From a virus: a DNA stretch of 9,584 nucleotides. Where the stretch lies: the UHGV virus genome UHGV-0197445. The stretch is one strand, 5' to 3'. Shown in pieces: positions 2,823 through 3,071 of this stretch. Each line of letters begins with the position of its first letter. Position 1 is the first letter of the stretch. The notes beneath the pieces were generated by a model that saw only the letters and a list, made by a program, of their open reading frames with translations, made no database searches and had not been told where the DNA came from. The position numbers and the translations under genes were made by a program.

Positions 2823-3071
2823 TCACCACCAATAAACAAACGGACGATGACTGACCGGAAAAGCAATGCCGTCAGCATCATGACCACGCATTACCTGATT
2901 GAGAAGCCTTCTGACTTCACGGCGCTCAGGCCTGGTCATCATCATATTGCGATACCAGGACGGCGATTTATCAAACCATCTGGCACAACTGGCAAAATGT
3001 GAACCTACACGACGATAAGACTTAAGGCGGCCACCGGGAAGTCGGTCACGCGCCTTATTTTTTACAGACAT
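2823..3071 (-). CDS. Small basic Arg-rich protein of unknown function, encoded immediately downstream of the secretin gene
   Basis: 82-aa ORF with a strong SD: AGAGGA then a 7-nt spacer before the ATG at 3071. The protein is highly basic (MSVKNKARDRLPGGRLKSYRRV...TRPERREVRRLLNQVMRG). It is co-oriented with the phage structural operon, in the slot between the last morphogenesis gene and attP. Confidence 0.45.
   Translation of the reverse strand: MSVKNKARDRLPGGRLKSYRRVGSHFASCARWFDKSPSWYRNMMMTRPERREVRRLLNQVMRGHDADGIAFPVSHRPFVYWW

Follow-up and report, generated by a model that had tools for sequence, protein, structure and literature searches.

The 82-aa gene and its leader at the end of the assembly operon

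The virus genome UHGV-0197445 was analysed over a stretch of 9,584 nucleotides (nt; hereafter, the window, meaning the whole of this stretch), with a focus on a small basic gene that follows the secretin gene. From its sequence, the window is one circularly permuted unit length of a dif-integrating inovirus of the CUS-1/YpfPhi type, whose minus-strand module is complete: Rep, single-stranded DNA (ssDNA)-binding protein, pVIII, pIII, pVI, Zot/pI, and the pIV secretin. The small gene encodes a protein of 82 amino acids (aa; MSVKNKARDRLPGGRLKSYRRVGSHFASCARWFDKSPSWYRNMMMTRPERREVRRLLNQVMRGHDADGIAFPVSHRPFVYWW) with 14 Arg and 4 Lys, a net charge of +12, and an isoelectric point (pI) of 11.5. The original prediction had reported an Arg/Lys-rich open reading frame (ORF) of this length without naming its strand, and its two ends were exact; that the ORF is co-directional with the structural operon was also right, because it runs in the same direction as Rep, ssb, pVIII, pIII, pVI, Zot, and the secretin gene. 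Its predicted place between the last morphogenesis gene and the phage attachment site (attP) held with one amendment, which is that a second small ORF intervenes (Table 1).

Table 1 Features of the window and of related loci (positions refer to the window, except those given with a locus handle)
Feature	Position	Strand	Basis or remark
82-aa basic protein gene	2823..3071	-	ATG-to-stop ORF; homologues; dN/dS
Shine-Dalgarno AGAGGA of the 82-aa gene	3078..3083	-	part of hairpin 3' arm
12-bp RNA hairpin	3077..3106	-	fold z = -2.95; compensatory changes across 53 distinct sequences
Leader ORF, window (E. coli phage): MALTFMGYEQYDIF-stop, 14 codons + TAG	3098..3142	-	upstream alignment
Leader, Xenorhabdus: MRNIIGYEQLDIF-stop			
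Leader, Morganella: MKRRLTGYEMQDIF-stop			
Leader, Pantoea: MALKLTGYEQQDIF-stop			
Leader, Zobellella: MIYWYETLDIF-stop			
Leader, L010: MSWYPALDIF-stop			main protein 36% identical
Second small ORF, acidic	2429..2626 (2677 from first ATG)	-	phrog_6642; RefSeq 65 aa
pIV-type secretin gene, last morphogenesis gene	3160..4404	-	phage-borne copies: always 5' of cassette
CTXphi-type attP: two inverted dif-like sites around GC hairpin	2197..2290	.	sequence
Rep (Phage_CRI)	8361-9413	-	inovirus module
Solitary cassettes	L006 9930-10510; L020; L021; L033 9938-10308		

Comparison with homologues marks the ORF as a genuine gene under purifying selection. The length of 82 aa is constant in 17 aligned homologues with 68–98% identity (from Salmonella, Pantoea, Brenneria, Morganella, Xenorhabdus, and Pectobacterium), and pairwise dN/dS ranges from 0.11 to 0.18 when the window gene is compared with those of Xenorhabdus, Morganella, and Pantoea. 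In pairwise comparisons, third codon positions hold 40 of 77 and 41 of 71 differences. The reading frame is conserved in relatives, whereas all other frames contain stops; the antisense frames have 1–5 of them in the window and in every homologue, the frame of a 125-aa plus-strand ORF included. A chance ORF or a non-coding element, with conservation due to nucleic-acid (DNA or RNA) structure around attP or to a plus-strand gene at 2625–3002, would fit the proximity of attP, the several inverted repeats of the region, and the 125-aa ORF that overlaps the gene in the window. This explanation is excluded for practical purposes by the low dN/dS, the third-position bias, and the antisense stops; in addition, a protein profile finds 149 clusters with E-values below 1e-3.

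The gene has been recorded before as an ORF without an assigned function. A review of YpfPhi describes YPO2280a and YPO2281 as genes of unknown function that adjoin attR and have homologues in CUS-1, and gene order identifies the 82-aa gene with YPO2280a and the second small ORF with YPO2281. Y. pestis NCTC5923 carries an identical protein (100% over 82 aa) directly after the secretin gene, with the 65-aa ORF 3' of it, in a tandem prophage at dif, and the equivalent in E. coli UTI89 is RefSeq WP_001399975. Database records annotate it as a hypothetical protein, and no mention of the RefSeq accessions was found in the literature.

The original prediction drew attention to a good Shine-Dalgarno (SD) sequence, which is indeed present: AGAGGA at 3083..3078 is separated from the ATG (3071..3069) by 6 nt, or by 7 nt when counted from the GAGG core, and is among the better ones of the window, comparable to those of pVI and ssb. 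The description of the gene as strongly initiated did not survive, because this SD is paired with the last codons of a conserved leader ORF and constitutes the 3' arm of a hairpin, so that strong initiation does not follow from the SD alone. Upstream alignment revealed that about 60 nt 5' of the ATG are conserved better than the 82-aa gene itself. In the window, the leader ORF starts 17 nt past the secretin stop and ends 26 nt before the main ATG. A leader is present in 22 of 22 enterobacterial and Zobellella loci, with its stop 24–29 nt from the main ATG. The stop-terminated leaders comprise 10–14 codons (24 in L031 if the longest in-frame ATG is taken); their N-terminal parts vary freely in length and sequence, and the conserved motif is Y-x-x-L-D-I-F. 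A metagenome scan with a narrow alignment added 80 loci of the subfamily with short N-termini, about 74 of which were examined; nearly all have the leader motif, 23–31 nt 5' of the main ATG. Leader motif and hairpin recur in about 59 distinct loci, which range from enterobacteria to metagenomes of marine and soil origin.

The 5' arm of the hairpin consists of AUC UUC UAG, the last leader codons, plus 3 nt, and the 3' arm contains the SD. RNAalifold retained all 12 pairs in 16 sequences, and the stem covaries, as positions 10–14 each show 3–5 standard pair types. Of 59 distinct fragments, 50 have four or more of the six bases of the Ile and Phe codons paired to the SD zone; in the others, the hairpin is present and the SD is slightly shifted. 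Where the SD varies, the leader 'Phe' codon varies in step (CUC with GAG, UCC with GGA), hence the Ile-Phe codons are at least partly anti-SD. Outside the stem, Tyr(-6) is found in 58 of 59 distinct leaders (TAT in 33, TAC in 25), Leu(-3) in 39 of them (encoded by CTG, CTC, CTT, or TTA), and Asp(-2) is encoded by GAC in 46 and by GAT in 13. Because Tyr, Leu, and Asp are kept with varied codons outside the stem, selection acts on the peptide, and the leader is evidently translated. A GC-rich soil subgroup (L035-L069, L016) shows a second architecture of the same motif: ...HY.(S/C)LDIF is retained with no stop after Phe, the next codon being CAG (mostly; one base from TAG), CCG, TCG, or TTR, and the leader reads on out of frame across the main start.

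Two loci show rearrangements around the leader. In E. coli FDAARGOS_1300 (L114 6880-8282), an IS3-family element lies between the secretin gene and the 82-aa gene, and similarity breaks at window position ~3095, within the hairpin at the leader stop, which is a natural separation of leader and gene. Xenorhabdus bakwenae (L029) contains identical leader-hairpin copies at 1976-2031 and 10497-10552, 8.5 kb apart, implying two tandem elements at dif. An Rfam search of the window gave no match, and neither did the region around the leader at E <= 1. Two further ideas about the leader were rejected: an in-frame fusion of leader and protein in L016, where the leader is out of frame and only overlaps, and a mimic of a C-terminus (SSB tip or FtsZ tail), since leaders of the soil subgroup continue beyond the motif.

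Distribution of the cassette among dif-integrating inoviruses

The slot was surveyed with one genome per species (15 loci), in addition to the loci collected earlier. The 82-aa gene lies directly 3' of the secretin gene in every phage-borne copy, and at the surveyed enterobacterial loci a near-perfect dif follows downstream on the same strand, with its XerC arm first. The distance between gene and dif ranges from 35 bp to 2.4 kb, and reaches about 9–10 kb with an intervening tandem element. Carrier phages represent three morphogenesis lineages, with secretins that are 25–48% identical to that of the window, and their replication proteins belong to Phage_CRI, Phage_GPA, or Rep_trans. For example, the window and a Morganella inovirus share 76% identity in the small gene and 25% in the secretin, and nothing else is detectable; the DNA similarity begins 55–75 nt 5' of the ATG and stops at the stop codon of the gene.

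Solitary cassettes were found in Pantoea, Brenneria sp. L3-3Z, and Zobellella aerophila, 35–349 bp from dif, and the surrounding 10 kb contain no inovirus gene. There, the left edge of similarity lies a few nt before the leader ATG. Taken at the level of sequence comparison, the 82-aa gene is a constant cargo element beside dif in Enterobacterales and Zobellella, carried by otherwise unrelated dif-integrating inoviruses. The variable slot envisaged by the original prediction is accordingly only half right: the content downstream of the gene does vary, but the gene itself is constant across Rep types and divergent secretins. We also considered that the cassette might be a miniature integrative mobile element exploiting Xer in its own right; this was rejected because no Xer half-site was found 5' of the cassette, between it and the secretin gene.

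The position corresponds to that of ctxAB in CTXphi, as had been predicted. The YpfPhi review places YPO2280a, YPO2281, and their CUS-1 homologues in the ctxAB position, the attP of the window is CTXphi-like, and the prophage is located at dif. Genome position and the same orientation as the assembly operon are what the two cargoes have in common. Unlike ctxAB, the 82-aa gene has a single small product that is basic and probably cytoplasmic, without a signal peptide and without any sequence or domain relation to CtxAB, and it is conserved across phage lineages instead of being phage-specific.

What follows the 82-aa gene differs between loci, from the acidic 65-aa ORF to other small ORFs in Morganella; another E. 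coli prophage has a different ORF there. The acidic ORF (pI 5.1) measures 82 aa from its first ATG, and phrog_6642 covers residues 14–82 only. Homologues are present in E. coli, Yersinia, Brenneria, and some Xenorhabdus (diverged in Xenorhabdus and Brenneria), and the ORF is absent after the 82-aa gene in Morganella, Pantoea, and Zobellella. Also 3' of the 82-aa gene, an inverted repeat with 21-nt arms occupies window positions 2710-2753, within the only other block that resembles the solitary Pantoea locus (46–54 nt, 87–89%); possible roles are a terminator that lacks a T-run and a structural element of the ssDNA.

Protein family, proposed mechanism, and rival explanations

A profile built from close homologues retrieved the 149 clusters mentioned above (50% identity clusters, E < 1e-3). 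The family core is the C-terminal ~50 residues, sPsWWrN..mTRPxRR....L...i.kG.D.D...FPl..KPh.YYW, which always form the end of the protein. No family could be assigned by the original prediction, and profile and structure-based searches likewise returned no meaningful match and no mundane known family. Pfam gave no match at E <= 0.1 for the 82-aa protein and no toxin domain, and scans of Pfam, NCBIfam, PHROGs, and PADLOC with this protein and 39–150 family members yielded nothing meaningful; the best library match was phrog_12343 (function unknown; E 0.001), and the rest were scattered chance matches. A sequence-profile search of the PDB produced only noise at E ~1, and fold searches had no match, nor was there one in the PDB or BFVD. 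Among GenBank phage isolates, tblastn found one weak match for the 82-aa protein and none for a relative of the tailed-phage type. AlphaFold2 models reached a pLDDT of 53 with 18 close homologues and of 75 with 150 diverse sequences; in the latter, a helix at residues 38-61 (pLDDT about 90), kinked at the invariant Arg-Pro, is predicted between extended ends. The protein is hydrophilic (grand average of hydropathy -0.85; top 19-residue Kyte-Doolittle window 0.21), and no hydrophobic segment, transmembrane segment, or hydrophobic N-terminus was seen on the Kyte-Doolittle scale.

Family members differ in their N-termini and in their genomic surroundings. Relatives with a long 'MSRTY...' N-terminus are encoded in tailed phages, where their neighbours are small early or accessory genes, and members with a short N-terminus ('MS(V/I)KN..DR'), including the window protein, are found in inoviruses. 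Short members also occur in a defence island, flanked by SocA_Panacea and MmeI-type restriction-modification genes, on Tn3 or plasmid DNA beside a Tn3 transposase, KfrA, and an integrase, and, in a marine bacterium, as a lone gene with yajQ on one side and a TonB receptor gene on the other. No dif-like site is present at these housekeeping, Tn3, and defence-island loci. The 82-aa protein may be a cytoplasmic accessory factor that targets the host or serves the phage lifestyle, and not a part of the virion, of morphogenesis, or of Xer integration. A role in nucleic-acid binding or regulation, as suggested by the original prediction, would fit the composition and the modelled helix with its extended tails. 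Our best guess, a weak one, is that the protein binds nucleic acid or the ribosome, because its composition is rich in Arg and aromatic residues, the model consists of a helix plus tails with no enzyme-like fold, and the family resides on varied mobile elements.

We propose, with a probability of about 0.5, that the 82-aa ORF is the payload of a mobile, self-contained cassette made of leader, SD-sequestering hairpin, and gene, in which the leader gates the expression of an accessory basic protein. In free mRNA, the hairpin would mask the SD. A ribosome on the leader, likely pausing or arrested with Phe in the P site, would melt the 5' arm of the hairpin. Toeprinting places the 3' reach of a ribosome at about 15 nt from the P site, and the SD begins ~16 nt past the Phe codon, just beyond the footprint; because of this spacing, a ribosome held at Phe would free the SD and a second ribosome could initiate. 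Translation of the 82-aa gene is thus probably gated by the ribosome on the leader, and its expression would be conditional, as with the cat-86, cmlA, and erm leaders. The residues Tyr...Leu-Asp-Ile-Phe, about seven in the upper exit tunnel, suggest peptide-dependent pausing or arrest; simple coupling or a functional micropeptide are possible alternatives to arrest.

The closest parallels to this arrangement are cat-86, cmlA, and ermC, which are leader-peptide translational attenuation systems. Here as there, the 3' end of the leader is the 5' arm of the hairpin and the SD lies in the 3' arm, a ribosome halted at the leader end would stop just short of the SD, and the last ~7 leader residues are conserved in our set. 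In contrast to those systems, the gene is not a resistance gene and the leader of one subgroup reads over the main start. To our knowledge, Y-x-x-L-D-I-F resembles no arrest peptide described so far.

Several observations weigh against a gated cassette of this kind. Pairing alone can account for the conservation of Ile-Phe, given that Phe changes to Leu or Ser where the SD differs, and the start of the leader is itself preceded by a weak SD-like GGA only. Leaders of the soil subgroup lack a stop after DIF, which rules out a termination-dependent switch in this subgroup, and the switch could even inhibit. The relatives in tailed phages have no leader. What is guessed about protein function comes from composition and a model of medium confidence, and fold and profile searches gave no match. 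Finally, the signal at Tyr, Leu, and Asp could fit a functional micropeptide instead of an arrest peptide. If so, the leader peptide would be a functional product or the partner of the 82-aa protein, and the hairpin would merely couple the translation of the two stoichiometrically, with no sensing or arrest. The conservation of these residues outside the stem and the complementarity of an acidic, hydrophobic leader motif to a very basic, aromatic protein speak for a micropeptide. We nevertheless judge it improbable, because in the soil leaders the motif is internal and followed by unconserved out-of-frame read-through, and the free variation of the N-terminal part is typical of arrest or coupling leaders, in which only the exit-tunnel residues matter.

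Two other explanations concern the role of the payload. In hok/mok, a masked SD is opened by the translation of an upstream or overlapping frame, and the masked SD with a coupled upstream frame in our cassette, overlapping the main start in the GC-rich variants, is similar. The gene could be a toxin, exclusion, defence, or anti-defence gene under tight repression, in a cassette that protects or addicts the host or blocks superinfection; masked SD and leader would then hold back a harmful or conditionally useful protein until it is triggered. The solitary cassettes, intact under purifying selection without phage genes, would agree with this, as would the relative in the defence island and those on Tn3 or plasmid DNA. 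However, the hydrophilic, basic product differs from the membrane peptides of hok/mok and from membrane toxins in general. PADLOC-DB gave only weak, inconsistent matches (best E 0.00087, to JetB; 3 of 150 members), and there is no conserved partner gene, given the loci without the acidic ORF. Moreover, truncated family copies are rare compared to intact ones, and a consensus scan, which may miss promoters, found no plus-strand promoter facing the leader that could transcribe across 3072-3142. We regard a toxin or defence role as unlikely.

Slightly less likely again is an accessory factor for Xer/dif, either XafT-like in integration, excision, or stability, or PSB15-like in binding a phage ssDNA signal near attP. 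The location argues for it: at every enterobacterial locus the phage-borne gene lies near dif, on the same strand and with the XerC arm proximal, it moves among unrelated dif-integrating inoviruses, and it remains beside dif after phage loss. XafT of TLCphi and PSB15 are likewise small proteins near the lysogeny/attP end of filamentous phages that exploit Xer. PSB15 of Xanthomonas phiLf-UK, from an integrative inovirus, is very basic (pI above 10.4) and partly disordered, and binds the packaging signal. Both are DUF3653 proteins, whereas the 82-aa protein (at E <= 0.1) and 39 family members (at E <= 1) show no DUF3653 match, nor a helix-turn-helix, and the PSB15 motif WAGFxF contrasts with PxWW..TRPxRR...FP..KP.YYW. 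The family also extends beyond Xer elements, as relatives with leader and hairpin occupy loci without a dif-like site (housekeeping, Tn3, and defence island) and more distant ones are in tailed phages. The attP is also of the folded-ssDNA type of CTXphi, which integrates via XerC catalysis without a phage factor.

The host phage and the meaning of the cassette

The filamentous prophage of the CUS-1/YpfPhi type is, on the evidence of near-identical genomic matches, common to plague bacilli and invasive E. coli. Strains of extraintestinal pathogenic E. coli (ExPEC; e.g., UTI89, NU14, F11) match a 0.9 kb stretch of the window at 99.8–99.9% identity. The UTI89 prophage is flanked by a perfect dif and hipA; this dif, regenerated at the prophage junction, lies 535 bp from the 82-aa gene, and a double site is found at the other junction. 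In Y. pestis NCTC5923, the prophage is tandem and located at dif, and Rep, pIII, Zot, and the secretin upstream of the 82-aa gene are 99–100% identical to those of the window.

Other parts of the window gave scattered matches. Phage records matched the whole window over 54 nt only. This segment (975-1028) has 98% identity to the 'major intergenic region' of coliphage If1 and 95.6% identity over 45 nt to Alteromonas phage phiAFP1; it lies between the gene of a 140-aa membrane protein and a low-GC 358-aa gene, folds unexceptionally as ssDNA (z = -1.2), and could be a packaging signal or origin hairpin common to distant inoviruses. The first attP arm with the GC hairpin (2200-2265, 66 nt) has 458 matches on E. 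coli plasmids, with 86–94% identity among those listed, presumably cer/dif-like Xer sites for multimer resolution that share this arm and the accessory hairpin. The 358-aa ORF (1121-2197) has a GC content of 27–35%, compared to ~42–50% elsewhere in the window, and its sole match is phrog_17621 (function unknown); we classify it as foreign cargo on the attL side of the phage. According to the YpfPhi review, the attL side differs between YpfPhi and CUS-1.

As far as this review and the searched libraries and collections could show, three findings are new: the leader-hairpin switch, the transfer of the cassette among dissimilar inoviruses, and its persistence beside dif; the review mentions neither the leader, the SD-masking hairpin, the cassette spread, nor the solitary copies beside dif. 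We tentatively suggest a wider reading, which we hold with clearly less confidence than the cassette itself: Y-x-x-L-D-I-F would be an undescribed arrest or pausing leader that, via an anti-SD hairpin, ties the production of small basic proteins to the translation state or to a small molecule. These proteins may be effectors on ribosomes or nucleic acids, carried as dif-proximal cargo in Y. pestis and ExPEC and spread to marine and soil elements.

YpfPhi and CUS-1 confer a modest fitness gain on Y. pestis and E. coli K1 in animals, and the review names the ORFs of unknown function at the prophage ends as the place to seek an explanation. The 82-aa gene is not lineage-specific filler at such an end: it is the sole gene common to dif-integrating inoviruses with dissimilar modules, and bacteria retain it beside dif after the phage is lost. 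For annotation, the locus is a warning that a good SD in the raw sequence may be a masked SD. The conserved switch offers an experimental handle: a short leader in which Tyr and Asp are invariant, and a hairpin of ~12 bp that covaries and covers the SD. Should the leader prove to be an arrest peptide, it would add a new motif to a short list and would point to the condition that switches on prophage cargo.

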